Positions 6,523-49,245 of a stretch of DNA of 49,285 bases are shown here, piece after piece; the stretch's first letter is position 1; each line of letters starts with the position of its first letter. Below the pieces are notes generated by a model. The model was given only the letters and a program-made list of their open reading frames with translations. It did not search any database and was not told the DNA's origin. Source of the stretch: a virus (Duplodnaviria; Heunggongvirae; Uroviricota; Caudoviricetes); the IMG/VR virus record IMGVR_UViG_3300022562_000659. One strand, given 5' to 3'. The position numbers and the translations under genes are program-made.

Positions 6523-8484
6523 ATGGAGAAATTCAAAGTAATTATACCACTGCTAACAGTTTTTCTTATGGTTGGCATTCTGTTCAGTGCTTCTGTTAGT
6601 GCCAGCCCACCACATAAACCGCATCCAACCAAAAAGCCTAGACCAACCCCAACACTAGTTGTAACTCCCGCACCTACCCCAACACCTACTCCGACACCGA
6701 TTATTACTCCTTCTCCTACGCCCGTTATTACTCCGTCACCTACTCCAGTAATAACTCCTAGTCCTACTCCGATTATTACTTCGAGTCCTACTCCAGTAGT
6801 AACACCACCACCGACTCCGGTTATCACACCAAGTCCAACTCCCGTGGTTGATCCAATGCCGAACACTGACTTGGATGGATGGAAACTTATATTCAATGAT
6901 GACTTCACAAGTGATCTTGCTCTAGGACAATGGCCGGGACCATATTCTGGACGCTGGTGGGCGTATCCTTCTAACTGGAGAGATACCAGTCAGAATGGGA
7001 CCTATTCTCCGGATATTATTTCGGTTGCTAATGGAATATTGGACGTTGGAATAAAATACGAGAACGGGTTATACAAGGTCGCAGCTCTTGTACCAAATGT
7101 TGTAGGTACAGACGATGACCAACTTTATGGAAGATACTCAGTACGATTCCGTGCTGATTCTATGGCTGGTTACAAGGGCGCATGGCTCTTGTGGCCGCAA
7201 TCTGAAACATGGCCGCGCGATGGGGAGATAGACTTCCCCGAAGGAGCATTCGATGGAACAATCTCAGGATATGTGCACCATCAGGGTGCTACCTCTTCAA
7301 GTGATCAGGACGCATTCCATACAGGAGCCACATGGCAATCATGGCATGTTGCAACAACTGAGTGGAGTCCGAACCTTGTCAGTTTCTATCTGGATGGAGT
7401 CCTAGTAGGTTCCACCACAACACGAATTCCGAATACTCCAATGCATTGGGTATTGCAGAATGAGACTAGGGTATCTGGTGGATTGCCGGATACTTCAGTA
7501 CAAGGACATGTACAAATAGATTGGGTTGCAGTATGGTCATTAATAGCGCCGACTCCAACCCCGACACCCGCACCGACTCCGACACCCGCTCCTACACCTA
7601 CCCCAGCACCCACAGCAACGCCCCCAAGTACGGGAGTGACAATTGTGGCCGTTGGAGATATTCATGGTGAAGGCTCAGATTCGGATTCGGTAGCAACTAA
7701 AAATCTTACAACGTCTATCAATCCTAATGCTATACTTGGATTAGGAGACTACCAGTACAATTATGGTACTTGCTCAAACTTTATGACCACTGGAAGATAC
7801 AACAGTGATTGGGGAACACTACAGAATAGACTATATGCTACTCTTGGTGCTACTCATGATTACAATGGAACCAGTGAAGCAGCAAGATATATGAGCGGTG
7901 ATTGTACGGGACAGACAAACGGAGATACCGCTGGTGCCTCTCTTCTAGGAGGAACGCAAGCGGCAGATGTTCCATACTCATTTGATATTGGTGGTTGGCA
8001 TATTATTCAACTTCCATCTTATTGTTTTAGAACAGGAGGTTCTTGTTCTATTGATTCGATCAATACTTGGTTGAAGGCCGATCTTGCTGCTCATCCGACA
8101 GCATGTACGATAGCCTACTCGCATGAACCGTATTGGACAAGCCCATCAAGTGGGCATAATAGAACGACAACCATTCGACCTTGGATACAAACACTCTATG
8201 ATAATGGAGTGGAAATGTACCTATCAGGACACCAACACAACTATGAGCGCTTTGCTCCACAGAATCTAAGCGATGCTGTTGATCCTATAGGAGTGCAGCA
8301 GTTTGTTGTTGGAACAGGAGGAATTGGTTTCTATAGCAGATCAAGTACTGCTGCCAACAGTTTAGCCTTTCAATCTTCTCATTATGGTGTGCTAAAGTTG
8401 ACTCTTCTAGCAGATAGGGCTGATTATGAGTATATATCAACTGATAATGGGTATAGTGATTCAGGAACAGTTGTTTGTCATTAG
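6523..8484 (+). CDS. secreted GH16 glycoside hydrolase plus metallophosphoesterase, with Pro/Thr linkers
   Basis: N-terminal signal peptide; WPRDGEIDFPEG (GH16 ExDxxE); GDIH, LGDYQY, SH and GHQHNYER phosphoesterase motifs. Confidence 0.85.
   Translation: MEKFKVIIPLLTVFLMVGILFSASVSASPPHKPHPTKKPRPTPTLVVTPAPTPTPTPTPIITPSPTPVITPSPTPVITPSPTPIITSSPTPVVTPPPTPVITPSPTPVVDPMPNTDLDGWKLIFNDDFTSDLALGQWPGPYSGRWWAYPSNWRDTSQNGTYSPDIISVANGILDVGIKYENGLYKVAALVPNVVGTDDDQLYGRYSVRFRADSMAGYKGAWLLWPQSETWPRDGEIDFPEGAFDGTISGYVHHQGATSSSDQDAFHTGATWQSWHVATTEWSPNLVSFYLDGVLVGSTTTRIPNTPMHWVLQNETRVSGGLPDTSVQGHVQIDWVAVWSLIAPTPTPTPAPTPTPAPTPTPAPTATPPSTGVTIVAVGDIHGEGSDSDSVATKNLTTSINPNAILGLGDYQYNYGTCSNFMTTGRYNSDWGTLQNRLYATLGATHDYNGTSEAARYMSGDCTGQTNGDTAGASLLGGTQAADVPYSFDIGGWHIIQLPSYCFRTGGSCSIDSINTWLKADLAAHPTACTIAYSHEPYWTSPSSGHNRTTTIRPWIQTLYDNGVEMYLSGHQHNYERFAPQNLSDAVDPIGVQQFVVGTGGIGFYSRSSTAANSLAFQSSHYGVLKLTLLADRADYEYISTDNGYSDSGTVVCH
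6640..6850 (+). repeat. Pro/Thr linker repeats ((V/I)ITPSPTP)
   Basis: Tandem 8-aa units in the translation; a second (PT)n/PA run lies near 7548-7625. Confidence 0.85.
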
Positions 8485-8954: not shown

Positions 8955-11900
8955 ATGAGTATAACTTATGTTGGAGCCGCTTATGCCGCTAGCACTAGTG
9001 TAACTCTGCCTTCATTCACACCTGGTGATATAGCCTTTGTATTGGCAGAAAATTTTACCTCAACCGCTATTTCTGCGCCCTCTGGTTGGAATATTCTTGA
9101 TTATGATGATACTACTGTTTCAAGTACCCCAAGAATGGTCGGATACAGAATTCTTCAGAGCGGGGATACAACAACTGGAACATGGACGGGATCAGTTGCT
9201 ACCACGGTTATTATTTATAATGGTGCCCATCCTATTCTCCCAATAGATGGGTTGGCAATTACAAGAAGTGCGGCCTCTTCTACAACAATCACTGCTGCGG
9301 CTTTAACCCCCGCATATTCAACAACAGTACCGATTGGACTGATGTTTTCAAGTAGCCAATTGGCTAATGCTTATAATTACGCTCCAACGTCGATGACTAA
9401 CCATACATCGGCGCTAGCGTCTGGATACGCTGGCTCTGCTGGTGCCTCTGCTGGTGCATATGCGGGCGGAACATGGACTTCAGCTCTTAGTGCTGCATAT
9501 AATTCTTATACAATTGGTCTTCGTGCTCAATCAGTATTTCCTATTATTGCGGATGATGATACCACTTCTGGTACACAAACATCTAACTCTACCTCATGGA
9601 CCCTTACGTATCCTAACAACATCAGTGCTGGTGATATGCTTATTGCAATAATCGCTTCTGATGGTGGTTCAGGCTATGTGCAGAATGTTCCTTCGGGATG
9701 GCCCGATGCAATATGGAAATACAATCAGGAGTCAAGTAGTGGTGCTAACGCTTTGTCATTTGGAAAGCGTATTTGTACGGGTACAGAGTCAGGCAACTTT
9801 ACTGTAACTATGAATGCTTCCGAGCAGGGTTCATGGATCATTTATAGGATACCTGCTGGTACTTGGTATGGAACAGACCCTTCTGGATCATTTGTAAACT
9901 CTTCATCAGATAGTGTAGTACGAACTTCAACAGGTGGCACTAGTGATACTCCCGATCCCCCGAGCCTTGATCCTGCGGGTTGGGACGCAGAAAATACTTT
10001 ATGGTTAACATTTATTGGCGTTGATACAAGCCGTACTGTTTCTGCCTTTCCTTCCTCACCGGACACATTCACTAATACAGATTCTTTAGTTTCTGGTGGT
10101 GCTAACGGTTCAACACTTGCTTGGGGCCGATTGGAAAAGAATGCGACTTCGGTTGATCCTGGAACATTTACAATTTCAACAAGTGATGACTGGAATGCTA
10201 TTACTATTGCTGTGCGCGGTGTTTTATCCTTTACGTATTCAGCACAGGCACAAGCAGAAGTTGCATCTGGTGGCCCAACTACAACCCGATTCCATGCTCA
10301 AGCCCAATCCGATATCAAAACTACATACAATAGTTTTGCGCAATCAAATACAGATATTCTACAGGTATATCAAGTCTTTGCACAGGCGCAATCAGATATC
10401 AAGGCAACCTATCAATCCTATGCCCAAGCCCAAGCGGCCCTTATTACGACGCTGCAAGGATTTGGACAAGCACAAGCAAATATACTTGCTAAATATAATG
10501 TATTTGCTCAAAGCCAAGCAACTATTAAACAAGTTTATACGGTATTTGCTCAAGCACAGGCAGGAATAAAGCAGACATATCCGTTTGGTGGCGGAGGATA
10601 CTCTACAATTGTCAGAGAAACATTCACCAGTGGTGGAACAGGATCAGCATCCAATACCCACTCTGTAAATGCCCCATCAGGCTTTACGACGGGTGATGTT
10701 GTTGCTGTAACAATTGGCCTAAACGGATCATCTATAAACAGTGTTCCAACTGGATTTGCACTCGTTGGATCGGCTACAGGACAGACAAATCCCAAGGTTT
10801 ATGTATACGTTGGAAAGTATGCTGATGTTGGTGCCGGTCCTTGGTCTTGGGGATCAACTGCTTCTATCTATGATGGATGGATTTCCGCTAGATATAGTGG
10901 TGTAGATCAAACTACAATCCAAGACGTTACCGCAGTCGGTACGGATGGTGCTGCACCCGGTACGGGAGATTTCAACCTCACTGGTATTACTACTGTAACT
11001 GATGGTGCAATGGTTATTGCTGGTGTAGCGACTAACTCATCATCAGCAGATCAGATAGTTGAAGATAACTTCCTCACTGAGATAGCCGCTGTCTTCCAGT
11101 CAAGCGCCATCAAGAATACTGAAATGGATGATGGCACTAAGACAACTGCTGGTGCTACTGGATTGCTGCACTATACGTTGAATAGCAACGTTGCTTATGC
11201 AGGAGTTGTTGGCGCACTTCGTCCAGCCTCAGGTGGTGGATCAGTTGTTGGTCCGACCTTTGCCCAAGCGCAAGCATCTATCATTAAAACTAAGCAAGTA
11301 TATGCACAGGCACAGGCAAGTGTTCTGACAGCCTACCAAGTATTTGCTCAGGGACAAGCAGATATACTTCAAGTTTATGCAGTATTTGCTCAGGCTCAAT
11401 CTGATATTCTACAAGTATATCAGGTATTTGCGCAAGCGCAAACATCTATTGTTACTACACTGCAAATATCAGCGCAAGCGCAAGCGCAGATAAAACAGAC
11501 CTATCAGGGTTATGCACAGGCTCAAGCAAATATTAAAACAACGTATACAGTATTTGCTCAGGCACAAACTGATATCAAGCAGACATATCCGTTTGGTGGA
11601 ACCACTACCGTTTTAGAGGATGATTTTGCAGGCAGTGGAAATTTGGCTGGATCGGCTCTTATTACTGGTGGTAACTGGAGCGGTGGAACCTATTGGACTT
11701 CTGGCTCGGGTAGTGTAAGTGCTACTAGAACTGGAGTCGCCCATTTAAGCAAGGGTACTCCTTCAGGTACACTCAGTTATGGTCATCGTGCCGGTACTGC
11801 TACCCATAGTGATTTTGATATATTTATCACCGATACAGGTGATGGATACTTTGAAGACGATGGCCTTTTTACATATAACACCCGTAATCTGGCTATCTGG

Positions 11901-13595
11901 TTTAGAGGTATTGATGCTAATAACTTCTACTATGTGGCTATAGCTACATCTAGTCTTCTAATTTATCGTAGAACTTCGGGTAGTTTTGTATCTGTAGCCT
12001 CCTATGCAATTTCTCCACAGGCTTTTGAAAGTTGGCGTGTTAGAGCAGAAGTCACAGGCTCTTCACCGACAACTCTTCGTGCTAAAGCATGGAAAGTTGG
12101 AACATCTGAGCCGGGATGGTTGATAGATACTACCGACAATACCGCTGGAAACCAGACAACAGATGGTGCAGTTGGTATGGCAGCACTTGAGTTACTATCC
12201 TCAAGTTTGCAGTCCTCTCTTGATGTAGGTGACGATTTCCTATTAACGACTGGTGGAGCAATTGAAGGCCCAACCTTCGCACAGGCTCAGGCATCTATTA
12301 TCAAGACCAAGCAGACATATGCGCAAGCACAGGCTTGGATAAAGCAAACATATCAATCATACGCTCAAGCACAAACACAAATTAAACAAACCTATCAGGT
12401 ATTTGCTCAGGCTCAGGCACAGATTCCGGTAGGTGTTCAAACCTTCCAAGGCTATGCTCAGGCTCAAGCCGATATACTCACAACGTATGAAGAATTTGCG
12501 CAAGCACAAGCGGATATTTTGCAAACATATATTGAGGTTGCTCAGGCAAACGCAGATATATTGCAAACTTATCAAATCTTTGCGCAGGCACAAGCGGATA
12601 TTCAGCAAACATATACTGAGTATGCCCAAGTCCAAGCACAGGTCATGCAAACGTATGAAGTGTTTGCACAGGCTCAGACTCAAATTCTACAAATATACCT
12701 AGAATTTGCGCAAGCAAATGCGGATATTCTTACTTCGTATCAAGGTTACGCTCAGGCCGAAGCCACCATAATTCAGACATATCAAGCATACGCACAAGCA
12801 CAGGCAAATATCAAAACAACCTATGCTGAATATGCGCAGGCACAAGCCTCGATTTTGCAGACATATCAAAGTTATGCACAAGCAAATGCTTCTATACTTG
12901 CAGTATATCAGGCATTTGCACAAGGCCAAGCAACGCTTGTTACTACAGCACAGGTATTCGCCCAAGCACAGGCTTTGATAATCCCAACAAGAGAATTTGC
13001 TCAGGCACAAGCCACAATACTTGCAACAACCCTAGAGTTTGCGCAAGCAATGGCCTATATGACTGGACAAATTTCTGAGTATGCTCAGGCACAGGCATCT
13101 ATTCTTGCTGTATATGATAATTACGCTCAGGCACAAGCACAAATTCTACAAACTTACCAAGGTTATGCTCAGGCTGAATCTTGGGTGCTTGCAACCTACC
13201 AGCAGTATGCACAAGCGAATGCAGATATAAAGCAAGCATATACTGAATATGCACAGGCGCAAGCATGGATCAGAATTACTGTTCTTGAATTCGCACAAGC
13301 ACAGGCAGACGTAAAGCAAACTTATGAGGCATATGCTCAGGCTCAGGCTTGGATAAAGGCAACTTATCTAGTATATGCTCAGGCTCAGGCTTGGCTCAAA
13401 GTTACGGACAGTGTAACATTCGCGCAAGCGCAAGCCGACATACTTCAAACTTATCAAGGATTTGCGCAGGCAAATGCTTATATATTGACAACAAATACAG
13501 AATACGCGCAGGCTCAGGCCATGATATATCTACCACAATACATTAGCCCTGTTGCCGATCTAAGCAATGAAGGCTGGAGAGGGGTGGTGATATAA
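8955..13595 (+). CDS. giant AQAQA-repeat fibre/adhesin-like virion protein 1
   Basis: 1546 aa; four globular beta-rich domains separated by blocks of the 14-aa repeat (Y/F)AQAQAxIxQTYQx. Confidence 0.7.
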   Translation: MSITYVGAAYAASTSVTLPSFTPGDIAFVLAENFTSTAISAPSGWNILDYDDTTVSSTPRMVGYRILQSGDTTTGTWTGSVATTVIIYNGAHPILPIDGLAITRSAASSTTITAAALTPAYSTTVPIGLMFSSSQLANAYNYAPTSMTNHTSALASGYAGSAGASAGAYAGGTWTSALSAAYNSYTIGLRAQSVFPIIADDDTTSGTQTSNSTSWTLTYPNNISAGDMLIAIIASDGGSGYVQNVPSGWPDAIWKYNQESSSGANALSFGKRICTGTESGNFTVTMNASEQGSWIIYRIPAGTWYGTDPSGSFVNSSSDSVVRTSTGGTSDTPDPPSLDPAGWDAENTLWLTFIGVDTSRTVSAFPSSPDTFTNTDSLVSGGANGSTLAWGRLEKNATSVDPGTFTISTSDDWNAITIAVRGVLSFTYSAQAQAEVASGGPTTTRFHAQAQSDIKTTYNSFAQSNTDILQVYQVFAQAQSDIKATYQSYAQAQAALITTLQGFGQAQANILAKYNVFAQSQATIKQVYTVFAQAQAGIKQTYPFGGGGYSTIVRETFTSGGTGSASNTHSVNAPSGFTTGDVVAVTIGLNGSSINSVPTGFALVGSATGQTNPKVYVYVGKYADVGAGPWSWGSTASIYDGWISARYSGVDQTTIQDVTAVGTDGAAPGTGDFNLTGITTVTDGAMVIAGVATNSSSADQIVEDNFLTEIAAVFQSSAIKNTEMDDGTKTTAGATGLLHYTLNSNVAYAGVVGALRPASGGGSVVGPTFAQAQASIIKTKQVYAQAQASVLTAYQVFAQGQADILQVYAVFAQAQSDILQVYQVFAQAQTSIVTTLQISAQAQAQIKQTYQGYAQAQANIKTTYTVFAQAQTDIKQTYPFGGTTTVLEDDFAGSGNLAGSALITGGNWSGGTYWTSGSGSVSATRTGVAHLSKGTPSGTLSYGHRAGTATHSDFDIFITDTGDGYFEDDGLFTYNTRNLAIWFRGIDANNFYYVAIATSSLLIYRRTSGSFVSVASYAISPQAFESWRVRAEVTGSSPTTLRAKAWKVGTSEPGWLIDTTDNTAGNQTTDGAVGMAALELLSSSLQSSLDVGDDFLLTTGGAIEGPTFAQAQASIIKTKQTYAQAQAWIKQTYQSYAQAQTQIKQTYQVFAQAQAQIPVGVQTFQGYAQAQADILTTYEEFAQAQADILQTYIEVAQANADILQTYQIFAQAQADIQQTYTEYAQVQAQVMQTYEVFAQAQTQILQIYLEFAQANADILTSYQGYAQAEATIIQTYQAYAQAQANIKTTYAEYAQAQASILQTYQSYAQANASILAVYQAFAQGQATLVTTAQVFAQAQALIIPTREFAQAQATILATTLEFAQAMAYMTGQISEYAQAQASILAVYDNYAQAQAQILQTYQGYAQAESWVLATYQQYAQANADIKQAYTEYAQAQAWIRITVLEFAQAQADVKQTYEAYAQAQAWIKATYLVYAQAQAWLKVTDSVTFAQAQADILQTYQGFAQANAYILTTNTEYAQAQAMIYLPQYISPVADLSNEGWRGVVI
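10569..10591 (+). repeat. 23-bp direct repeat, copy 1 (domain entry, KQTYPFGG)
   Basis: AAGCAGACATATCCGTTTGGTGG, identical at 11577-11599. Confidence 0.9.
11577..11599 (+). repeat. 23-bp direct repeat, copy 2
   Basis: Identical to 10569-10591. Confidence 0.9.
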
Positions 13596-13596
13596 G

Positions 13597-16500
13597 ATGG
13601 CATTCCCGATTACAAGATCAGCCGTAGCGAATACGGTTATCTCTAACTCAACGTCATGGACCCTCTCATATCCTACAGTCGGAGATATTGTTGATGGTGT
13701 ATCCAGCAACCCTATTGAGGCTGGGGACCTTATCTGCGTATTTATTGCTAGGGATGGAACTACTGGGACACAATCAATTACTGACTTTACTACCATTGTT
13801 GATGCCTCTGATGGAAGCGGTGCAAAGGGTGGATTCTTTGTAAAGGTAGCAACCGGATCGGAGACAGGTACATTCACCTACTCTCCCGGCGCATCCGAAC
13901 AGGGAATTTGGAGAGTCTTTGTTATCAAAAATTGGTGGGGCACCATCGCTACTGGTGTGTTTGCAAATACACCAACTACTGGAACAAGTACCGCGCCCGA
14001 CGCTGGGGATTGTGCGCCGGGTTGGGGAACCCTCGATATCTACTGGCGAACAATGTTCGCGCAGGATGATGGTAGAGGATCAGTTACTGTTTACCCAACC
14101 AACTACGATATCTATCCAAACTCTGATGCCTCTGGTGGTTCTGGTGGAGCCTCTGGTGGTTCTGTAGGTAGGCAGTTAACAGCAGCCTCAGAAAACGCTG
14201 GAGCATTTACTGACTCCCGTAACGATGATTGGGTTGCATGGACAATTGCTATTAGACCGGCAGTTGCCGCTACCACATATCAAACATTTGCACAAGCCCA
14301 AGCAAGAATTAAACTCATACAAAGAGGCTTTGCACAAGCCCAAGCAGATATCAAGCAAACATATCGAGGTTTTGCGCAGGGTCAAACAGATATCAAGCAA
14401 ACATATCAGGGCTTTGCACAAGCACAGACTGCAATTGTCAAACAAAAGCAAGTGTCTGCGCAGGCTAGTGCATGGATAAAAGCAGAAAGACAAGACTTCG
14501 CTCAGGCACAAGCCGATGTACTTCATACCTACGAAGAATTCGCTCAGGCACAAACGGATATTAAACAAATATATCAAGAGTTTGCGCAAGCAAATGCCTG
14601 GATAATGAGAACAGAAGATGCATTCGCACAAAGCAATGCATGGATACGAACAACATATCAGGGATTCGCGCAAGGACAATCTGATATCAAGTCTACGTAT
14701 AGATCATTTGCTCAGGCCCAATCTCAGATAAAAACAATATATATAGATTTTGCTCAAAGCCAAGCACAGATAAAAACCACAAGTACACAATATGCACAAG
14801 CGGAAGCGCATATTAAAACTACTTATCAGGAATATGCACAAGCAAATGCATGGCTACTTACTGAATATCAAGGGTATGCCCAAGGCCAAGCATACATCTT
14901 AATTGTACAAAATGTCTTTGCTCAGGCTCTTGCGGAAATCTTCTCAACACAGATCGAATCCTATGGATTTGCCCAAGGTCAAGCAGCCGTAAGTATTGAT
15001 ACAAATATCTATCAATTCATAGATGAAATAACTGCTGATGATGCGGACTACATTCTTACTGACTACAATCCAAATCTTATAACATATACCGCAGCACTTG
15101 CTGATATAAATGAACCTGAATACAGACAAGATCATATCATCAAACTGCGGGCAAATAAGATCGGTCCTAACTTCGGAACACTCACAGTAGAGTTGTTACG
15201 AAATGATGATCTTATTGCAACACGTACAATAGCCGATCTTGCTACTACTCCAACAGATTATGATTATCCACTGACTCCACAAGAAATTGAGTTGATTCCA
15301 GATTATGCGAATCTTCAACTTTCTCTTACTGGAACAGCGGGCACAAATACAAGAATCTATGTGACCTTTGCACAACTACAGGCTCCTGCCGGTAATGCAA
15401 AGATACGCAGAGGATTTGCACAAGCACAGGCAGAGATTATTCTTGGAGCTTCACGTTGGCAATACTCACAAGCACAAGGTACAGTTTTGCAAACGTACCA
15501 AGTGTATGCACAGGCACAAGCCGAGATTCTAATACCCCTCTTTACTAGAGAGGCATTCGCTCAGGCCGCAGCATGGATTTTGCAAACGTATCAGGGATAT
15601 GCACAGGCGGAGTCTTGGATACTCCAAACATACCAAGAATATGCTCAGGTTCAGGCTTCAATAAAGCAGACCTATATTGAAGTTGCACAGGCACAAGCCT
15701 CTATCCTACAAACATATCAAGAATATGCTCAGGCGCAAGCACAGATAGCAACTACTTACCAAGAATATGCACAGGCGCAGTCTGTAATACTCCAAGTATA
15801 TCAGGAATACGCACAAGCCCAAGCAGCTGTTAAAAACACATATCAGCAATATGCACAAGCGCAGGCTAATATACTTCAAACATATTTGGAATATGCGCAA
15901 GCCCAAGCACAGATCATATCAACGTATGCAGTATTTGCTCAGGCTCAAGCAAGACTTATTGCGTTCGGTGTTACCGTATACGCGCAGGCAACAGCATATA
16001 TGCTTGGTGCCTACCAAATGTTCGCACAGGCACAAGCAGCAATAAAGGCAACTTCAACTGAGAGTGCAAACGCTCAGGCAGACATACTGCAAATTTATCA
16101 GCAGTATGCTCAGACAACAGCCCTTATTGCTACTACATCACAACTATTCGCTCAGGCGCAGGGTTGGATAAAGGCAATCGATACAGCATATGCGCAAGCA
16201 CAGGCATCTATACGAACAACATATCTGGAATTTGCACAGGTGCAATCTGATATTCAACAGATATATCAGGCACAGGCGCAAGCAGAAGCCCTTATACAGC
16301 AAATATATCAGGGATACGCACAAGCACAATCATATATCATTATTTCTGGAAGTATAGTTGTTGCCCAAGCACAGGCTCAGATTCAAACAACGTACATTGG
16401 TTCTGCGCAGGCACAATCTGATATCAAATCTACATATGCCCAATTTGCGCAAGTTCAAACGATTATTACAACAGCATCTTACGGTTATGCACAATCTGCT

Positions 16501-16875
16501 GCAATTATACGTACTGCATCAGTCGTATTTGCTCAGGCATCCGTAATAATACTAACAATCAATACACAATCTGCACAGGCAGAGTCTTGGATTCTTGCTA
16601 CAACTGTAGTGACAGGACAGGCGATGGCTTGGATTATCAAGCCATATGCTACAGGACAGGCGATGGCGGTAATACGCCAAGACCGTATTATGAAGAATGT
16701 CACTGTTGATGATCGTAACTCAATCATCATAACAGTGGATGATAGAAAGGCCGACTCGCTGCTTGTTCAGGATCGAGCGGAAACAACAATTACTGTGACG
16801 GAAAACTCTCGTATTGTTATCACGTTGAACGACAGAAACAGTGTGAGAGTTACCGTCAATGATTCTATGTACTAG
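13597..16875 (+). CDS. giant AQAQA-repeat fibre-like protein 2
   Basis: 1092 aa; N-terminal domain paralogous to domain 2 of 8955; two long 14-aa repeat blocks; C-terminal roughly 10-aa TVxDR repeats. Confidence 0.7.
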   Translation: MAFPITRSAVANTVISNSTSWTLSYPTVGDIVDGVSSNPIEAGDLICVFIARDGTTGTQSITDFTTIVDASDGSGAKGGFFVKVATGSETGTFTYSPGASEQGIWRVFVIKNWWGTIATGVFANTPTTGTSTAPDAGDCAPGWGTLDIYWRTMFAQDDGRGSVTVYPTNYDIYPNSDASGGSGGASGGSVGRQLTAASENAGAFTDSRNDDWVAWTIAIRPAVAATTYQTFAQAQARIKLIQRGFAQAQADIKQTYRGFAQGQTDIKQTYQGFAQAQTAIVKQKQVSAQASAWIKAERQDFAQAQADVLHTYEEFAQAQTDIKQIYQEFAQANAWIMRTEDAFAQSNAWIRTTYQGFAQGQSDIKSTYRSFAQAQSQIKTIYIDFAQSQAQIKTTSTQYAQAEAHIKTTYQEYAQANAWLLTEYQGYAQGQAYILIVQNVFAQALAEIFSTQIESYGFAQGQAAVSIDTNIYQFIDEITADDADYILTDYNPNLITYTAALADINEPEYRQDHIIKLRANKIGPNFGTLTVELLRNDDLIATRTIADLATTPTDYDYPLTPQEIELIPDYANLQLSLTGTAGTNTRIYVTFAQLQAPAGNAKIRRGFAQAQAEIILGASRWQYSQAQGTVLQTYQVYAQAQAEILIPLFTREAFAQAAAWILQTYQGYAQAESWILQTYQEYAQVQASIKQTYIEVAQAQASILQTYQEYAQAQAQIATTYQEYAQAQSVILQVYQEYAQAQAAVKNTYQQYAQAQANILQTYLEYAQAQAQIISTYAVFAQAQARLIAFGVTVYAQATAYMLGAYQMFAQAQAAIKATSTESANAQADILQIYQQYAQTTALIATTSQLFAQAQGWIKAIDTAYAQAQASIRTTYLEFAQVQSDIQQIYQAQAQAEALIQQIYQGYAQAQSYIIISGSIVVAQAQAQIQTTYIGSAQAQSDIKSTYAQFAQVQTIITTASYGYAQSAAIIRTASVVFAQASVIILTINTQSAQAESWILATTVVTGQAMAWIIKPYATGQAMAVIRQDRIMKNVTVDDRNSIIITVDDRKADSLLVQDRAETTITVTENSRIVITLNDRNSVRVTVNDSMY

Positions 16876-16887: not shown

Positions 16888-17184
16888 ATGACGTATAATC
16901 CGAATGTCTATGTACTCGGTGGAAAAGCAGAGATATATTTCGAAGTTACTGCCATAGATGGCACCGTGATTCAGCCAATTGAGAGTCGTTTATCTATAAA
17001 AGAACCATCCGGTATAATTGTCACAGTCTCCGGTGGGGAGTTGGTCCAGGCATCCGGCTACCTCTATTTGCTGTACCAGCCCGCGACAATCGGGTGGTAT
17101 CAGTACGAGGTATGGGTTAAGGACGCAACCGGACGAGAAGATGCTGCGACAAGAGGCTTTGAAGTAATAGATTTAGTCTATTAA
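16888..17184 (+). CDS. small beta-sandwich protein (BppU N-terminal-like), probably virion-associated
   Basis: YVLGG...RLSIKEPSG...YLLYQP...GWYQYEVWV pattern resembles phage Ig-like adaptor domains (recognised by eye). Confidence 0.5.
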   Translation: MTYNPNVYVLGGKAEIYFEVTAIDGTVIQPIESRLSIKEPSGIIVTVSGGELVQASGYLYLLYQPATIGWYQYEVWVKDATGREDAATRGFEVIDLVY

Positions 17185-17253: not shown

Positions 17254-17339
17254 GGCCCCGTGGCGAAATTGGTAAACGCAGCTGACTTAAAATCAGTAGT
17301 CGCAAGATACTCAGGGTTCGAATCCCTGCGGGGCTACCA
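17254..17339 (+). tRNA. tRNA-Leu(TAA)
   Basis: GCTGA-CTTAAAA-TCAGT, long variable arm, CCA. Confidence 0.93.
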
Positions 17340-17344
17340 ACATT

Positions 17345-17434
17345 CTAGGTGAATAGTGGCCTATTCCTGAGGCGTCGGGAGCGACGTTCGATTCGTTGCT
17401 GGAAATCGTGGTTCAAATCCACGCACCTAGATCA
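17345..17434 (+). ncRNA. tRNA-shaped RNA with a non-canonical core
   Basis: Acceptor-like CTAGGTG/CACCTAG, D-like hairpin AATAG-TGGC-CTATT, canonical T-arm CGTGG-TTCAAAT-CCACG; no standard anticodon arm; ends in TCA. Confidence 0.6.
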
Positions 17435-17435
17435 T

Positions 17436-17519
17436 GGCGCGGTGGTGGAATTGGTATACACGCTAGTCTCAAAAACTGGTTCCGAAAGGTTGTGGGTTCG
17501 AATCCCACTCGCGCTACCA
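17436..17519 (+). tRNA. tRNA-Leu(CAA)
   Basis: CTAGT-CTCAAAA-ACTGG, variable arm, CCA. Confidence 0.93.
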
Positions 17520-17539
17520 AATTAAAGAAGGTGATTTAT

Positions 17540-17953
17540 GTGCAATATGCTCTATGTGATAGAATAGGAACAGGCGGATATATTACGGTAGCCTCCGGCC
17601 AGCCAGAGATATTTGATCCTTACCGACCCGTAGTTGCAGATTACGGGTGTTCGTATATTGCCATAGACAAGCAAGGTAATGGGCAAGCAGGATTTTGGGT
17701 AAAGTTTACTGGTGGGGATGAAGCAGGAGCTTTAGCAGATAACAGAGTAGATGCTTTCCCCATTGATAAGTTGACTGATATTGTGGGGGCAGGACAGGCT
17801 ACGTTTGTTAATAACAAACTTTCTACAAAGTATGGCATAACAACAAATCCTGTATCTGCTGGAATGACGTGGCAGCAAGCACTAGATGCCGTTTTAGCAG
17901 CCTATGATCCTACCGCAGATATGCTTGGTTTAAAACTCAACGGTCTTTCTTAA
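17540..17953 (+). CDS. hypothetical protein
   Basis: The ORF-track start at 17396 overlaps RNA genes; GTG 17540 follows a GAAGGTGA RBS. Confidence 0.65.
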   Translation: MQYALCDRIGTGGYITVASGQPEIFDPYRPVVADYGCSYIAIDKQGNGQAGFWVKFTGGDEAGALADNRVDAFPIDKLTDIVGAGQATFVNNKLSTKYGITTNPVSAGMTWQQALDAVLAAYDPTADMLGLKLNGLS

Positions 17954-17957
17954 CAGT

Positions 17958-18042
17958 GGCCCTATGGTGGAATTGGCAGACACGCTGGTCTTAGGAACCA
18001 GTGCCGAAAGGTTTGGGGGTTCGAATCCCTCTAGGGCTACCA
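17958..18042 (+). tRNA. tRNA-Leu(TAG)
   Basis: CTGGT-CTTAGGA-ACCAG, variable arm, CCA. Confidence 0.93.
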
Positions 18043-18045
18043 CAC

Positions 18046-18122
18046 CTCCCCGTGGCGCAATCGGATAGCGCGAGAGACTTCTAATCTCTAGGTTGCAGGT
18101 TCGAATCCTGTCGGGGAGGCCA
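18046..18122 (+). tRNA. tRNA-Arg(TCT)
   Basis: AGAGA-CTTCTAA-TCTCT, CCA. Confidence 0.93.
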
Positions 18123-18143
18123 ATTTATTTACAGGAGAATGGC

Positions 18144-18344
18144 ATGGCTTACGGCGTACAGTATGAGGAAAGTGTACCTACGTGTCCCAAGTGTGGATGC
18201 CGGTTAACGTATGCAGGTGATGGATTTTTATCCCATTTTATTTGGGGCGAGAAAGACGCTAGGGGATGCAGATGTTCTGATCTATATAGGTACTGGTATG
18301 TAAATAAGGAGAAGGTGTCAGATGCTAAACCCACTAGATTTTAA
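18144..18344 (+). CDS. small zinc-ribbon-like protein
   Basis: CPKCGC and CRC; ATG 18144 after AGGAG. Confidence 0.6.
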   Translation: MAYGVQYEESVPTCPKCGCRLTYAGDGFLSHFIWGEKDARGCRCSDLYRYWYVNKEKVSDAKPTRF

Positions 18345-18867
18345 GCAACCACTACTACTTGATATTGGTGCTGGGGGTTATTCATCTGATGATAAATTCA
18401 CATCAGTTGATCTTGTTACTGAGTGTGATATTAAAGCATCGATGGATGCTATTCCTTTGCCGGATGGTTGTGTTGAGGGCATATTTTCATCAAATGCGCT
18501 GGAACATATTGGGAAACATCAAATTATTCCCACTTTACGTGAATGGCGTAGATTACTAAAGCCGGGGGGTAAAATCCAACTAGTACTTCCTGATCTAGAA
18601 TGGGCCGTCCTCTGGTGGCTTTCACACCAAGAAGATCGTGGTTGGAGTATGGATATCATCTACGGGCATCAGTTGCATGAAGGTGAATATCATAAGACTG
18701 GATTTACTCCGCGTATTATTTGGGAGTATTTCATGGAGGCCGGTGGATTTGAAGTCCACAAGATCGAATATATTCTTGGTGACTATAACGAGACACAGTT
18801 AGAGGAAAACAAGAAGAAGATAGAGGTTAGTCAGCGATGCATTAGCGTCGAGGCTAAAAAGATTTAA
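18322..18867 (+). CDS. class I SAM-dependent methyltransferase
   Basis: LDIGAG, IFSSNALEH and LKPGGKI; paralog of the MTase domain of 4484. Confidence 0.88.
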   Translation: MLNPLDFKQPLLLDIGAGGYSSDDKFTSVDLVTECDIKASMDAIPLPDGCVEGIFSSNALEHIGKHQIIPTLREWRRLLKPGGKIQLVLPDLEWAVLWWLSHQEDRGWSMDIIYGHQLHEGEYHKTGFTPRIIWEYFMEAGGFEVHKIEYILGDYNETQLEENKKKIEVSQRCISVEAKKI

Positions 18868-18868
18868 T

Positions 18869-18943
18869 CTGGGCGTGGTGTAGCGGTTGCACACTTGCTT
18901 TGGGAGCAAGTAGTCGGGGGTTCGATTCCCTCCGCCCAGACCA
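18869..18943 (+). tRNA. tRNA-Pro(TGG)
   Basis: CTTGC-TTTGGGA-GCAAG, CCA. Confidence 0.93.
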
Positions 18944-18958
18944 ATTTTAGGAATCATA

Positions 18959-19348
18959 ATGAGTTTTGCACAGTGTAAGGATATCTCTATTCGGGTATCC
19001 GGAGAAATTCCCAATAGTGAAATTTATTATGGGTTGTATATTGCAACCACCCCTAGGGAAACATGGGATGAAGGCTGGAGAAATGCTACTGATCCAGTGT
19101 TTACTCATTTTTGGGTGGTAAGTGATAACAAGATTATTGATCGGGCATGCGATCAATTTGGTGGGCCGGAAGAAGTGGTTACCGATATTGATGATCCCCA
19201 TTATATTATGGTAGGTAAATACAAGAAAGAGGATGATACTACTACTCCCCTTGTTGAACAGCCAATTATTGAGTGGGATACACGAATTGGTAAGAGTGTT
19301 CTAGTCCATTGGAAAGACTTTAACAAGTACATGCGCAAATTCAAATAG
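18959..19348 (+). CDS. hypothetical protein
   Basis: 129-aa ORF after AGGA; no recognised family. Confidence 0.65.
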   Translation: MSFAQCKDISIRVSGEIPNSEIYYGLYIATTPRETWDEGWRNATDPVFTHFWVVSDNKIIDRACDQFGGPEEVVTDIDDPHYIMVGKYKKEDDTTTPLVEQPIIEWDTRIGKSVLVHWKDFNKYMRKFK

Positions 19349-19423
19349 GAGGGAGGGAGTATCGCGTGGCTAGTAGAAGGCATTTTATATTCGCCCGAAC
19401 ATTGGCTACTAAGATAGTACATT

Positions 19424-19747
19424 ATGGGCAACCCTAAAAAAGACTGGTTTAGGGCTGCAAAAGCATCGGGTCATTACCCACTCAGTTTCAACTTTATTTA
19501 CACAAGACAAGACAAATATGTACAGTGTTCTTATTGTGGTATTTTCGTTCACGAAAAGTACATCACACGAGATCATGTATGGCCTAAGAGCCTTGGAGGA
19601 ATATTAAAGGCTCCTGCGTGCAATGAGTGCAATGTTCTCAAAGAAAACATGAAACCAATAGAGTGGGCGATATTCGCTACAGCCAATAACATTGCTTTAC
19701 CAGATTTAGATATATTCCAATTTATTCATCGTGCTGCTGTCGTATAG
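19424..19747 (+). CDS. HNH endonuclease
   Basis: CSYCG, TRDHVWPKSLGG and ACNECNVLK motifs. Confidence 0.88.
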   Translation: MGNPKKDWFRAAKASGHYPLSFNFIYTRQDKYVQCSYCGIFVHEKYITRDHVWPKSLGGILKAPACNECNVLKENMKPIEWAIFATANNIALPDLDIFQFIHRAAVV

Positions 19748-19807
19748 TGGTTAGTATGTCAGTCTTCCAAATTGAAGGCGCGGGTTCGATTCCCGCTAGC
19801 AGCACCA
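19733..19807 (+). tRNA. tRNA-Gly(TCC)
   Basis: TCAGT-CTTCCAA-ATTGA, CCA; 5' end overlaps the HNH stop codon. Confidence 0.9.
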
Positions 19808-19820
19808 CAAAGGAAACAAA

Positions 19821-19994
19821 ATGTCAGTCGATACCGATAAGTTGCTCTCAAACTATGAAGCAGCTAGCAAGAAGATCAAGCAGCAATTGAATTCACCCAA
19901 AGGCGGATCACAAGCAGAGTCGGAGTTTCGTGATGCCTATCAGAAACTTGTACAGGCGGGACTCGCGCAGCAGATTAAGAAGAAGTATCGCTAG
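19821..19994 (+). CDS. 57-aa hypothetical protein (absent from the ORF track)
   Basis: AAGGA RBS; MSVDTDKLLS...AYQKLVQAGLAQQIKKKYR; fills the gap between two tRNA-Gly genes. Confidence 0.7.
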   Translation: MSVDTDKLLSNYEAASKKIKQQLNSPKGGSQAESEFRDAYQKLVQAGLAQQIKKKYR

Positions 19995-20000
19995 TAGTGT

Positions 20001-20075
20001 GCGGTAGTCATATAATGGCTATTATGACAGCTTGCCAAGTTGTACATGAGGGTTCAATTCCCCCCTACCGCTCCA
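20001..20075 (+). tRNA. tRNA-Gly(GCC)
   Basis: ACAGC-TTGCCAA-GTTGT, CCA. Confidence 0.9.
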
Positions 20076-20090
20076 ATTTAGGAGAAAATT

Positions 20091-20420: not shown

Positions 20421-20427
20421 TATTCGT

Positions 20428-20502: not shown

Positions 20503-20564
20503 ACTTTCGCCCTAATCTCACTATATTGGTAGAATAATATGGGGTTGGAAAAATAAAATCTCAC

Positions 20565-20638: not shown

Positions 20639-20650
20639 AAGGAAATTTAG

Positions 20651-44030: not shown

Positions 44031-45101
44031 ATGGCTGCTGGTGATATAATTTTGAGCGACGGGTTTGATTCTCTATCATTTATAGGTTGGAATTCTGAGT
44101 ACTCTTGCTCGATCAGTAGTTCTTATTCACGGGTAACTAATAGTGGAGCAGGGCTGCATTTTACAAGTACTAATAATGGATTCAACCCAAGCCCTGAATT
44201 GGAGTCTGACACGTTTGCACCAATAGAAGAATTCCTATTGAGTTTTGCATTCAAGATCGGTTTGGTTACTTCCAATCTATGGCTTGTGACTTTTAAGGAC
44301 GGTACAGAAACATCTAATCATCAATGTGCGCTCGTTGTAAACTCAAGTGCGCACATCGCATTTGTTCGACGTAATAGTGGAAACCCTACATATGGAATTG
44401 CTGCAACTTTGGCTGAGGGGTCCACAATTCTTCAGGCCAATAGATGGTATTGGGTTGAAGCAAAAATCAGAGTTAGCAGTACTAATGGGTATGTTGAATT
44501 GAAACTAGATGGAAACACTGAGATATCAATGACAACTTCTCTTGATAGTTCGAATACTGCTAATGATTACGCCACACGTATTAATCTGAATTCGTCTTTC
44601 TCATCTAGCAATACTACAATAGATTATGATGATGTAGTGTTATTTGATAATACTGGAAATACAATGAGTTTCCTAGGGGATGTTCGTATTCTTGATCTAG
44701 TACCTACCGCAGATGGAAACAGTTCTGATTGGACTCCTTCAACGGGAGTAGATAACTATGCAATGATTGATGAATTGCCCCCTGTGGATACTGATTATGT
44801 ATATACAAATACTGTAGGACATAAAGATACCTATGTATTTCAAGACCTTCCAGCAAGTGCAACAACAGTGTATGGTATCACATATGTCACAAGATCGTTC
44901 AAGACCGATGCCGGTACTCGTACACTTAGAAATGTGATGCGGCAGGCAAGTACAGATTATGAGCGCTCTGATAGTGATACATCAATTTCTCTGAGTCCAT
45001 CAACAGCGTTCTATTCGGAGACAGTCAATCCCGCTACAGCGGTGGCATATACTGTCAGCGATATCAATGGAAATGAATTTGGATTTAAACTACAAGCATA
45101 A
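44031..45101 (+). CDS. baseplate-associated lectin-like beta protein
   Basis: N-terminal ConA-like pattern (WYWVEAK...VELKLDG...IDYDDV); C-terminal PTADG...W...IDE...DTDYV domain. Confidence 0.5.
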   Translation: MAAGDIILSDGFDSLSFIGWNSEYSCSISSSYSRVTNSGAGLHFTSTNNGFNPSPELESDTFAPIEEFLLSFAFKIGLVTSNLWLVTFKDGTETSNHQCALVVNSSAHIAFVRRNSGNPTYGIAATLAEGSTILQANRWYWVEAKIRVSSTNGYVELKLDGNTEISMTTSLDSSNTANDYATRINLNSSFSSSNTTIDYDDVVLFDNTGNTMSFLGDVRILDLVPTADGNSSDWTPSTGVDNYAMIDELPPVDTDYVYTNTVGHKDTYVFQDLPASATTVYGITYVTRSFKTDAGTRTLRNVMRQASTDYERSDSDTSISLSPSTAFYSETVNPATAVAYTVSDINGNEFGFKLQA

Positions 45102-45159: not shown

Positions 45160-48100
45160 ATGAGTACAACCTATGAGGTTTTTTCTCAGGCTCAGGCAAC
45201 TATTGTTACTGGCTATCAATCTGTTGTTGTAAGTAATCTTCCATTTGGATATTGGGGATTAGCCGATACCTCCGGTACAACAGCCGTTGCGATCAAGGGA
45301 TCAAATGGCACATACTCAACTACTGGATTAACCCTTGGCGTCTATGCTGCCATGCCTACAGACGACGTAAACAAGGCAGTCAGTTTAAATGGGTCGGGCG
45401 GGTCGCAATTACTGCTTAACTCTAGTACCCCCACAAACTCCTTCTCTATGGAGGCATGGGTTAATCCAAACCGCACTATTAACATTGCAACAGAAAGCAA
45501 CTCTGGTACATCTGCTGGTACAAACAATAGCCAAAACTATGTTTTCTTCCCTGATCAAAAAGGGACTGATCGTGGCTTGGGAATGTCCGTTGGAACAAAC
45601 GGAATTCAGGCAATCATTCACGGTAACAATACCATTGTTCCTATTGCCTCCTACTCAGCCACAATATCTACTACATGGCACCATGTAGTTATAACACTGG
45701 ATGCCAAGGTTCCAAAGATTTATCTAGATGGTGTTCTTGTACGAACTGGAATAACCGCTACTGCTACTAATGTGTACGCACCGACACGAATGTTTGGAAC
45801 ATCTGGAAACAGTTATGGCCCATACAACGGCCAATTGAACAACGGCGCTCTTTATGATTATGTTCTTGATGCTGATCAAATCCTCAATCATTATCAGGCA
45901 GGAGTACCAAGGGCAGTTGGACAGGCCCAGGCACTTATCATTAATATACCTGTTGCTCAAGCACAGGCACAAATTCTTGCATTCGATTTCCCGCAGTGTG
46001 GACAAGCACAAGCCGATATTGTACAGGGATTACGCTATAATGGCTTGGCACAAGCACAAACCATTATCACTGATATCTATGAGACTTTTGCTCAAGCATC
46101 CGTATGGATACGAGACACGTATGCTGGATTTGCTCAGGCAAATGCTTGGATTCTCCCATCTACACAAGTCGGACAAGCAAACGTAGGTATTAAACAGACA
46201 TACCCACTTGCAAATATTGAGCCTAATCTTACTATGATCCTACGTCCAACCTCTGATGAGTGGACTGGATCACCTACCCTAGTAAATAGTGATACCTACT
46301 ATGGGGCGGTAGATGAAGAAGTTCTTAGTAGATCAGACTACTATAGAAACACTATTTCTAATTCCTATATGCGGCACAACTTTACTATTCCGGCAGATCA
46401 ATATCCAATTGGTGGATCATATGTAATTGATTCTGTTCAAATAACAGTTGATCAGTATACCCCAGCACCCTCTGGTGGTGCTACATACCGTCTTGTAGAT
46501 CCTGATACTGGTACATCTTACACAGTTTTAAGTATCGGACAAAACCAGAACGGTACTTTCTCCAGTACTCCGGTTACGGTTAGACCTTGGGATAGTCAGC
46601 CTTGGACACATGAGGATATCCTTGCTCTAAAGGCTGGATATTATGCACCGTCTTCATTTGCTAGTGGTTATATTTACCAATTCTATGTTACTGTCAGTTA
46701 TCACTATGCCGCACCTGTAGCACAAACTGCTGCCTTAATTTATCAAACACGTTGGTATCCCTCAGGACAAGCACAGGCAGCAATACTTAATACCTATACC
46801 CAATCAGCACAGGCGGCTGCGTTAATTGATAACTATATCAAAGTACAGTTTGCCCAGGCTGAAGCTTATATATTCCTATGGGCAACTACTGCCCTAAGCC
46901 TACGTGTTATTGAAGCACAATCACTTCCAACTACGGCGACTAGTAATATAACTCTTAGAGTTATCACACAGCGTCCGATATTTGGATTAGCGCAAGCGAC
47001 GGCATATATCAGTAATAGTGAAGGAACTACTGTACAGTTTGGACAAGCCTCTACTTGGATTAAAGCCGTTGGATCAGTTGTAATAGGTCAAGCACAGGCA
47101 TGGGTGCGTGTCTTTGCAGTATCAACATTCTATGTTAGAACAATAGCCGAAGTATCTAACCCGGATACGCGCCTAGCAGCCCACAATCTAAGAGTTATCA
47201 TAAATAGACCTATATTCTCTGTAGGTCAAGCGAAGGCACTGATCCAGTCCCCCATAAAAAATGCACATGCACAAGCCCATGTTTCTATTTATAGAACACC
47301 ACATATAACCTATGAGGTATTTGGACAGGCGCAGGCGAATATCAGAACCAAGTATAGGGCTAATGCGAATGCTAGGGCTTCTATTTTACGTACATACACA
47401 AGACATGCTCAGGCTATGGCATTCATCTTCCATCCACAGGAATTTGCACAAGCACAAGCACATATTAAACATACAAAGACTGTAGTAACGGCAAATGCAC
47501 AAGCCTATGTGCGATTGTATGTTGGATATGCGCAGGCTAATGCCTGGATCGACAATGTTATTACGAAAACGGGACAGGCCCGAGCCTACATGCGACTGTA
47601 TGTTGGATATGGGCAGGCACAGGCTGATATTAAAACCACATACCAAGCACGGGCACAAGCCGCTGGTGCTGTTCTATTCTCTGGTATGTTTGCACAGGCT
47701 ACAGCCGATATATGGCAGCAATATCAGGTATATGGACAGGCTGCGGCTCTTATTGATAACTACATTAAGGTTCAATTTGCTCAAGCCCAAGCCGAATTGA
47801 TCTTTATCCAAGTATCTACAATACAAATACGTACTATTATTGATAGTACTAATAAAGAAACTAAGATATCATCAATCAGCCTACGTGCTATTACAAACAG
47901 GGCAACCTTCCGTAGTGGACAGGCTGCCGCCCTAATATTCAACTATACTAAGGTTTTCTTTGGGCAAGCACAGGCTAATATCCGAGCCAGTTCAGTATAT
48001 TCAGGACAAGCAGAAGCGTATTTGAGTGCCTATGGTGTAATTGGCACAGGACAGGCTGAAGCATCCATTCTTAAACTTGCGGGTTATGGACAAGCACAAG

Positions 48101-49245
48101 CTTACTTCCGAGCCTTTGGTGTACCAGCATTTGGACAGGCTTTGGCCTACTCACTTGGATTTACATTTGTTCACGCACAAGCTGAGGTTTATATCAAACC
48201 TCTTACTGGTTTGGCACAAGTTATGGCCTCAATTAAGAGGGCTTATACACAGCAGGCACAGACTCAGGCAATGATTGAGATTGTACGTCGTGGCTATGCG
48301 CAGGCTGAAGCATGGATATTGTACACAACTAGCATCTATATTGCTACAGCACAAGCACAGATTCAGTATCGTACATTCCCAGCGGCTCAAGCCCAAGCCG
48401 AGATTACACAGTATAAGCACGGTTGGGCTAATGCTATGGCGCAGATTGCCGGATTGCAGCACGCACAAAGCATGGCACTTATTCGTGCAGTATCAATACC
48501 AACTGCACAAGCCGGGGCACTTATCAAAGATAAGTATACAATGATTATCTATAATGGATATTTACTACCCGGATATCTACAAAGTGAATCTATACAAGAT
48601 TCATCTAGAATTAAGATGTACTCATCGCCATATTTTGATGATATACATGGTGAATATATTGGATTGGAAACAAAGATCATTTCTCTCCAGTTTAAGTTAC
48701 TTGGGGAGACATATGATAGTTTGAAAACACAGGCTACAAAAGCTTCGACAATGGTATGGAGCGCGAAAAAGGAAGCTAAATTATATATTCATAGTTTAGA
48801 TAATTACTACCTTGCAATTCCAAAAACTTTCAAGATACTTACTTCAGCTAAAGATTCAACCCTCGATTACACGGTTGACTTCAGCGCCCAGCCTTGGCTT
48901 TATAGCAACATTATGAACACGATCACAGGTACTACAACTCTTGTGACAACAGGTAGAACCTTTAATGATGGAGTTGACACCCCAGCAACAGTTAAGATTA
49001 CGGGTACAAATATTACAGTATCCGGATACACAGCAGATAATTTATTTACAGGATACTTTGCTGTTTCTGGTGCAGTTACAGATTTGATTATTGACTCAGC
49101 AAATTATACAGCCACTATAGACGGAGTAAATAAAAATGGGTTAATGAGAAACTTAGACTACCAGATTTATGTTGGTGAGGGAGTCACATACTTTAATATA
49201 ACAGGTGCTACTAGCGCTGAAATTTCTTGGAGAAACAGGTGGTAA
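45160..49245 (+). CDS. AQAQA-repeat fibre protein 3: LamG/ConA domain, repeats, C-terminal Dit-like domain
   Basis: FSMEAWVNP...WHHVVITLD...IYLDG...QILNHY (LamG-like); AQA repeats; final 235 aa align by eye with 43253. Confidence 0.72.
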   Translation: MSTTYEVFSQAQATIVTGYQSVVVSNLPFGYWGLADTSGTTAVAIKGSNGTYSTTGLTLGVYAAMPTDDVNKAVSLNGSGGSQLLLNSSTPTNSFSMEAWVNPNRTINIATESNSGTSAGTNNSQNYVFFPDQKGTDRGLGMSVGTNGIQAIIHGNNTIVPIASYSATISTTWHHVVITLDAKVPKIYLDGVLVRTGITATATNVYAPTRMFGTSGNSYGPYNGQLNNGALYDYVLDADQILNHYQAGVPRAVGQAQALIINIPVAQAQAQILAFDFPQCGQAQADIVQGLRYNGLAQAQTIITDIYETFAQASVWIRDTYAGFAQANAWILPSTQVGQANVGIKQTYPLANIEPNLTMILRPTSDEWTGSPTLVNSDTYYGAVDEEVLSRSDYYRNTISNSYMRHNFTIPADQYPIGGSYVIDSVQITVDQYTPAPSGGATYRLVDPDTGTSYTVLSIGQNQNGTFSSTPVTVRPWDSQPWTHEDILALKAGYYAPSSFASGYIYQFYVTVSYHYAAPVAQTAALIYQTRWYPSGQAQAAILNTYTQSAQAAALIDNYIKVQFAQAEAYIFLWATTALSLRVIEAQSLPTTATSNITLRVITQRPIFGLAQATAYISNSEGTTVQFGQASTWIKAVGSVVIGQAQAWVRVFAVSTFYVRTIAEVSNPDTRLAAHNLRVIINRPIFSVGQAKALIQSPIKNAHAQAHVSIYRTPHITYEVFGQAQANIRTKYRANANARASILRTYTRHAQAMAFIFHPQEFAQAQAHIKHTKTVVTANAQAYVRLYVGYAQANAWIDNVITKTGQARAYMRLYVGYGQAQADIKTTYQARAQAAGAVLFSGMFAQATADIWQQYQVYGQAAALIDNYIKVQFAQAQAELIFIQVSTIQIRTIIDSTNKETKISSISLRAITNRATFRSGQAAALIFNYTKVFFGQAQANIRASSVYSGQAEAYLSAYGVIGTGQAEASILKLAGYGQAQAYFRAFGVPAFGQALAYSLGFTFVHAQAEVYIKPLTGLAQVMASIKRAYTQQAQTQAMIEIVRRGYAQAEAWILYTTSIYIATAQAQIQYRTFPAAQAQAEITQYKHGWANAMAQIAGLQHAQSMALIRAVSIPTAQAGALIKDKYTMIIYNGYLLPGYLQSESIQDSSRIKMYSSPYFDDIHGEYIGLETKIISLQFKLLGETYDSLKTQATKASTMVWSAKKEAKLYIHSLDNYYLAIPKTFKILTSAKDSTLDYTVDFSAQPWLYSNIMNTITGTTTLVTTGRTFNDGVDTPATVKITGTNITVSGYTADNLFTGYFAVSGAVTDLIIDSANYTATIDGVNKNGLMRNLDYQIYVGEGVTYFNITGATSAEISWRNRW

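Follow-up and report, generated by a model that had tools for sequence, protein, structure and literature searches.

In chaperone-usher pili, an incomplete beta-sandwich, an immunoglobulin (Ig) fold without its last strand, is completed in trans by the N-terminal extension of the next subunit, and a chaperone and an usher assemble the subunits into a linear chain. The engineered SpyTag/SpyCatcher pair is a split CnaB2, an Ig-like domain closed by a covalent isopeptide bond. In type V pili of Porphyromonas (FimA/Mfa1), a C-terminal donor of ~20 residues fills the groove of another subunit, whose beta-sheet it makes whole without a chaperone; this donor is at first self-complementing, until gingipain cleavage frees it, and the result is a linear homopolymer made of pilin folds (bioRxiv 10.64898/2026.07.16.738973). 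Branched receptor-binding systems of phages with T4 gp10-like/XD docking were described for TSP1-4 of Ackermannviridae (PMC11414711) and for phiKp24 (PMC9700779). We analysed the viral record IMGVR_UViG_3300022562_000659, a stretch of 49,285 nucleotides (nt) forming part of a tailed-phage genome (hereafter, the window), in which one beta-domain is split between the products of two neighbouring genes, open reading frames (ORFs) 8955 (fibre 1, the donor) and 13597 (fibre 2, the acceptor). It is probable that the domain is completed in trans and that branched fibres result.

ORF 8955 (8955..13595; this and all other features of the fibre system listed below lie on the plus strand) encodes a protein of 1546 amino acids (aa) with N-terminal and inserted beta-type domains, three blocks of a 14-residue AQAQA repeat and a C-terminal donor segment (aa 1528-1546; 13536..13592), which follows a stalk of ~30 AQAQA repeats (12267..13526). 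This C-terminus corresponds to the first ~17-20 residues (PxxD...W) of an unnamed jelly-roll domain resembling carbohydrate-binding modules (CBMs). The pattern consists of an invariant Pro (nt 13548, aa 1532), Asp three residues on and then Trp, with the stop codon at 13593-13595. The assignment of the donor segment to the first two jelly-roll strands is based on its profile rank, the conservation of donor termini and the interface residues of the predicted complex (11-32). ORF 13597 (13597..16875; 1092 aa) encodes an N-terminal domain paralogous to aa 195-434 of 8955, an AQAQA block, the acceptor or socket (14989..15396), a further AQAQA block and acidic 10-residue C-terminal repeats. The socket is the remainder of the CBM-like jelly roll, set between AQAQA repeats and devoid of family positions 1-21: its match to the hidden Markov model (HMM) of the family begins at position 22 of 154 (E=6e-35), and its NIYQFIDE motif at nt 15004 (aa 470). 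In all sockets found, the HMM match starts at position 20-23.

A phmmer search with the 13597 domain gave 746 matches, which form an unnamed family far closer to it than ORF 44031 or ORF 45160. Intact members open with Q-(F/Y)-A-R-P-x-x-D and Trp, 15-25 residues ahead of an IDE..D.DY motif. The opening segment was present in cis in 176 of the 183 homologous domain copies; five of the seven exceptions belong to the four AQAQA proteins in this set, and in the remaining two the segment is there but divergent. A position-specific scoring matrix (PSSM) was derived from columns 1-14 of 74 intact domains, AQAQA proteins being left out. The eight donor C-termini then known took ranks 1-8 among 918 distinct ORF C-termini, with 7.7-31.1 bits (17.4 bits for the window's donor) and 0.6 bits for the next terminus, and the stretch just upstream of every acceptor scored from -0.7 to -15. 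The lowest donor score (7.7) differs little from the top internal scores within long proteins; the weight is therefore carried by the donor set and not by single cases. Pro and Asp were invariant in 28 distinct donor termini, which had been picked by the PxxD pattern. The split is thus confirmed as beyond chance; a first-pass annotation of the window had placed the first segment alone at the end of 8955 and the rest, devoid of it, in 13597, and both statements are borne out, as are its positions for the donor Pro, NIYQFIDE and the corresponding motifs in 44031 (44703) and 45160 (46246).

The same annotation saw intact copies of the domain in 44031 and 45160, the former matching the two halves residue for residue. 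The C-terminus of ORF 44031 (phrog_2448; 44682..45098) does carry an intact, distantly related copy by profile comparison (hhalign 93%, E=3e-7). The residue-for-residue match holds for the first ~45 residues and not beyond; direct BLAST of 44031 with 13597 gave only an 18-residue match (E=0.04), and the homology is shown through the family profile. For ORF 45160, the match of the putative copy (46219..46725) to the family was weak (22%, E=1e-3 over 40 columns; 16%, E=0.0016 over 122 columns), so that an intact family copy is likely but unproven. Direct pairwise comparisons with these two proteins were too weak for the claim and were discarded as evidence.

The intact domain was modelled as a beta-sandwich with a predicted local distance difference test (pLDDT) value of 96. 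Its first strands (3-5 and 7-12) correspond to the donor segment; positions 3-12, absent from the sockets, are strands in this model. A fold search returned CBM-type jelly rolls (best Z 10.4, root-mean-square deviation 2.9 A, 119 aligned residues) with many ties, and Foldseek gave template modelling (TM) scores of about 0.5-0.6 to CBM8/6/36. Uncharacterised phage proteins were matched as well, e.g., Pas29 of Actinoplanes phage phiAsp2 (TM 0.77), and no sequence relative of the domain was found in the PDB. The completed domain is predicted to have the topology of the galactose-binding-like (CBM) jelly roll, a fold also present in the porphyran CBM (8xmz), CBM16, CBM32, CBM4-2 and discoidin; because of the many tied matches, no family or ligand is assignable to it. 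We know of no galactose-binding-like CBM that is naturally split.

In complex prediction, the donor peptide with the socket scored 0.69, and the best of three controls scored 0.01; the mark for this score is reached by 58 of 80 solved complexes and by 2 of 110 mismatched pairs. The runs shared at least 92% of contacts with a partner pLDDT of at least 68, and the pLDDT of chain 1 was 82-83 with the peptide and 68 with unrelated partners. The peptide was predicted to dock at the place that the first strands occupy in the intact fold: donor residues 1532-1538 paired with socket residues 497-501 and Ile1530 with 593-594, a register matching the intact topology. When the socket was modelled by AlphaFold with its natural flanks, the core was confident, the first-strand stretch had a pLDDT below 50, and no cis strand took its place. 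The conserved acidic IDE..D.DY loop adjoining the donor may form a Ca2+ site; the loop is suggestive of carbohydrate or Ca2+ binding, though no more than that.

The split is conserved in related phages. In all, 15 loci have a donor gene with an acceptor gene directly after it, giving 18 such junctions: the window, L001, L003, L006/L043, L007 (two), L013, L025, G001 (where the junction spans the terminal repeat), G002 (two), L055, L073 (two), L074, L075, L076 and L077. Where a look-up was begun from one known side, the partner was next door in 5/5 cases. Donors and sockets are paired one to one, with totals per whole record of 1/1, 2/2, 1/1 and 0/0 (a third match in G002 is an intact N-terminal domain), and their numbers increase together in L007, L073 and G002; in three-gene clusters, the middle protein bears both a socket and a donor. 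The syntenic single-fibre loci L015, L042 and L049 contain neither. Among 121 AQAQA proteins, 20 donors and 13 sockets were found, and intact family copies were N-terminal only. The joint also has a second setting, the tail-tip cluster of L055 and L074, where a 45160-like fibre, with a distal-tail-like domain fused to it, carries the socket. The sockets are 23-46% identical to that of the window and formed one group in the tree (91/73, not starred), in which branch lengths were 0.1-0.85 changes per column; a single and old origin is thus likely.

We propose a plug-and-socket joint formed by fold complementation in trans between fibres 1 and 2. AQAQA fibres would carry adhesion-type domains towards the N-terminus and an anchor at the C-terminus; the anchor of fibre 1 would be the ~17-20-residue opening of the jelly roll, and fibre 2 would show the remainder midway along its stalk. 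The two fibres would be made separately, with translational coupling, and then joined, the donor slotting between the socket strand at aa 497-501 and the C-terminal strand at aa ~593-598 and completing the sandwich. Fibre 1 would hang off the middle of fibre 2 as a side branch, and proteins with both socket and donor would lengthen the chain to three fibres. The arrangement likely arose when a stop, a start, a tip domain and repeats were inserted into a loop of an internal intact domain, and later duplication would have multiplied it. The first-pass annotation had proposed that the C-terminus of fibre 1 completes the fold inside fibre 2 and gives a branched fibre; conservation and the predicted docking support the former. 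We infer that the two chains bind in vivo, that their product is branched and, in view of their paralogy to the tail-tip fibre, that the virion carries 8955 and 13597. With less assurance, the evidence leans towards a repeatable natural tag-and-catcher, in which a ~17-residue plug fits a socket placed anywhere on a stalk and the number of branches is set by stacked plug and socket genes (one, two and three fibres were seen), at the tail tip as well as in a second cluster, on a stalk of 14-residue repeats whose fold is undescribed.

As in donor-strand complementation, the acceptor is short of a strand and another chain has it at a free terminus. With chaperone-usher pili, the phage joint would share a beta-sandwich completed in trans by a short terminal extension; however, its jelly roll is without the first strands and its donor is C-terminal, and no chaperone or usher family match was found among the 18 proteins of the window that were scanned (49 kb of the genome). 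The pilus-like strand complementation suggested by the first-pass annotation is supported, with a predicted fold that is a CBM-like jelly roll and not the pilin Ig fold. The C-terminal donor strand is a likeness to type V pili. Unlike theirs, the phage donor is the N-terminal piece of a jelly roll carried by another gene product, the socket is mid-chain and a branch is expected; the fibres have no evident protease site, nor are signal peptides obvious by eye at their N-termini. Whereas in type V pili donor and groove belong to one repeating lipoprotein subunit, 8955 bears a donor without a socket and 13597 a socket without a donor, and family scans of both gave no pilin match. By analogy, the joint would work like type V donor-strand exchange, yet it would belong to neither pilus family.

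Like the gp10/XD systems, the phage loci combine several separately encoded fibres, apparently linked up as a branched complex whose distal modules vary. Those systems dock by complete N-terminal domains of trimeric spikes, whereas here the anchors would be C-terminal and one domain is cut in two; no gp10-like or XD docking domain was matched in Pfam, PHROG or NCBIfam scans. SpyTag/SpyCatcher is similar in that a short peptide completes a small beta-domain; the phage joint is natural, and an isopeptide is not claimed for it. 'Donor strand exchange' was reported for the sheath arms of an extracellular contractile injection system (PMC13266070), which are a different structure from the fibre joint. 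No donor-strand or split-domain joint in phage fibres was found described in the open-access literature. Described phage fibre branching uses N-terminal gp10-like docking; the rule here, if true, would be a different one, C-terminal anchoring by completion of a cut domain. Fibre connectivity (who plugs into whom, and how many branches) would then be readable from gene sequence in uncultured phages, large adhesin genes could be added in tandem without redesign of the tail, and an ordinary CBM-like domain could give rise to a strand-sharing joint when a gene is inserted in one of its loops. Both parts are small (about 135 + 20 residues), and the pair may be usable as a natural peptide tag and catcher.

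Several observations weigh against this proposal. The socket core reached a pLDDT above 95 in AlphaFold without the peptide, so the socket may be largely folded without the donor. Complex prediction tends to favour halves of a split domain through likeness, and the acceptor alignment used there held 113 trimmed intact homologues. The loci come from a single phage group and are therefore not independent origins. The tail-tip fibre P0023 (L005:607-4434) has two sockets and no donor in the partial upstream gene of its 5-kb contig; its donors may be elsewhere in that genome. The terminal VVI of the donor is no evidence of protein function: its GTG GTG codons are fixed (12/12 and 16/16 Val codons) and belong to the Shine-Dalgarno-like site of ORF 13597 (13580..13591), which overlaps the last donor codons and accounts for their conservation, and the same motif precedes 16888. 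VVI as a co-evolved docking strand was therefore dropped. The donor Asp is GAT in 18/18 cases compared with a background of 80%. The 8955 and 13597 genes are also outside the tail module.

The first alternative is an insertion relic: a cassette of stop, start, tip domain and repeats entered a loop, leaving a non-binding piece and a truncated domain that is self-sufficient or inert. The gene order is just what such an insertion yields, the single socket group fits a single origin, the core is confidently modelled alone and the Shine-Dalgarno site holds the final donor codons. Insertion is a plausible origin, but not the present state. The Pro-x-x-Asp core lies 36-45 nt ahead of the stop, beyond the ribosome-binding site. 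Synonymous changes occur within the segment at Pro (all four codons), Ala, Ile and Ser (both codon families) and favour selection at the protein level. It has been kept over sockets of just 23-46% identity while tip domains were swapped; moreover, donor and socket numbers climb together in the multi-fibre loci, and the pair recurs in the tail-tip cluster. We consider a mere relic unlikely.

A second alternative accepts the joint but not a branched virion fibre: the product would be an assembly attached to the capsid, neck or host surface, or the donor would be only an assembly aid. This is suggested by the neighbourhood of 8955 and 13597, which have glycosyltransferase, thyX-like and tRNA genes around them and are ~20 kb away from the tape measure; in addition, family scans gave no tail-fibre family match for either protein, and no cultured relative was found. 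Against it, AQAQA repeats are fused to a distal-tail-like domain in proteins of the 45160 type (47/121), and the tail-tip fibres of L055 and L074 contain sockets with donors adjoining. We consider such a product unlikely.

It is very unlikely that the two pieces are joined in cis into one chain by readthrough, frameshifting, ribosome bypass, splicing or DNA excision. The genes abut (1-nt gap in the window) and some relatives have both in one frame, but the gaps of +1, 0, -1 and -14 nt cover all three frames with TAA, TGA or TAG stops, and each downstream gene has an ATG and its own Shine-Dalgarno site. Recoding across the junction was rejected because the frame varies between loci. No Rfam intron or other RNA was found between the pieces (only tRNAs were detected in the window), and the 1.4 kb that separates them consists of an ordinary paralogous domain with repeats. 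An assembly or rearrangement artefact of this genome is already refuted by conservation: repeats could mislead assemblers, and a frameshift in L006 is missing from its second assembly, L043, but 14 further loci, drawn from JGI, Logan and NCBI assemblies, show the split with sockets 23-46% identical.

Proteins 8955 (1546 aa), 13597 (1092 aa) and 45160 (1361 aa) share the 14-residue AQAQA repeat broken by globular domains (12267-13526, 14278-14988, 15406-16686 and 45160-48500 in the window). Its spacings are 14 (70%), 15 (14%), 13 (6%) and 12 (4%), with 10, 11, 17 and 18 together at ~3%, and Gly is frequent. AlphaFold gave a helical stalk (pLDDT mostly 45-80), which was rejected, since these spacings, shifting by one or two residues and not by three or four, and the frequent Gly suit a coiled coil poorly. 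All the AQAQA fibres considered here appear to be anchored by the C-terminus. The donor plug forms it in 20/121 proteins and a distal-tail-like domain in 47/121. The latter domain in 45160 (48532..49245) is paralogous to ORF 43253 (38% identity, E=1e-49), which is distal-tail-like by its position after the tape measure and has a weak DNA_circ_N match; this paralogy ties AQAQA fibres to the tail tip. In the third type, that of 13597, the last fibre of every cluster ends with 4-6 acidic 10-residue repeats ((L/V)xD type, 16693..16872 in the window), a candidate anchor, and is followed by a conserved 98-aa gene (16888..17184; 54-58% identity). Its product is a candidate partner of the repeats, and the two may form another anchor pair. 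The distal-tail-like gene is present twice through duplication (43253-44017 and 48532-49245), and the fusion of its second copy to the C-terminus of an AQAQA fibre is kept in L050-L055 and L074. In 45160, three paired short inserts among the repeats (aa ~575-700 and ~880-925; LRVI...LRVI type) resemble beta-hairpin spurs.

The window also contains a terminase-like gene at 23578, a portal-like gene at 25241, a tape-measure-like ORF at 37982 and 20 tRNA genes. Related phage records are 105-120 kb long, and the phages carrying the split joint are uncultured and come from soil and sediment. No sequence relatives were found among 50,697 GenBank phages. Pfam, PHROGs and NCBIfam gave no name for 8955, 13597 or the socket domain, and matches in Atlas were to unnamed clusters only; the sole family name among 8955, 13597 and 45160 is a Laminin_G_3 domain in 45160. 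Matches of the fibre proteins to SMC were dismissed as compositional.

Upstream of the fibre cluster, a conserved trio (3764-6515) encodes a 196-aa protein rich in Ser, Thr and Gly, a fusion of a glycosyltransferase with a methyltransferase, and a 171-aa protein. With so many glycosyltransferases, glycosylation of the virion or fibres is suggested. The gene just upstream of fibre 1 (6523-8484) encodes a secreted-looking protein in which a GH16 domain and a metallophosphoesterase occur together with Pro/Thr linkers; a different Pro/Thr-rich gene stands at the matching place in L042. The tRNA genes, including Ile(TAT), are interleaved with small ORFs at 2983-3658 and 17254-22723; the called ORF 17396 overlaps a tRNA-Leu and probably starts later. 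The phage-like contig L049 was binned in a metagenome-assembled genome of an 'uncultured Flavobacteriaceae', and L055 shares its accession prefix; the binning of these contigs is probably contamination and not host evidence. In L055 (917-2156), a donor is encoded by an 85-aa ORF after a 307-aa F5/8-domain gene ending in AQAQA repeats; this looks like an interruption of the original donor gene that spared the plug. One fibre gene is frameshifted in L006 (9236-16449) and whole (2404 aa) in L043 (2764-9978), which indicates an assembly error within the repeats.

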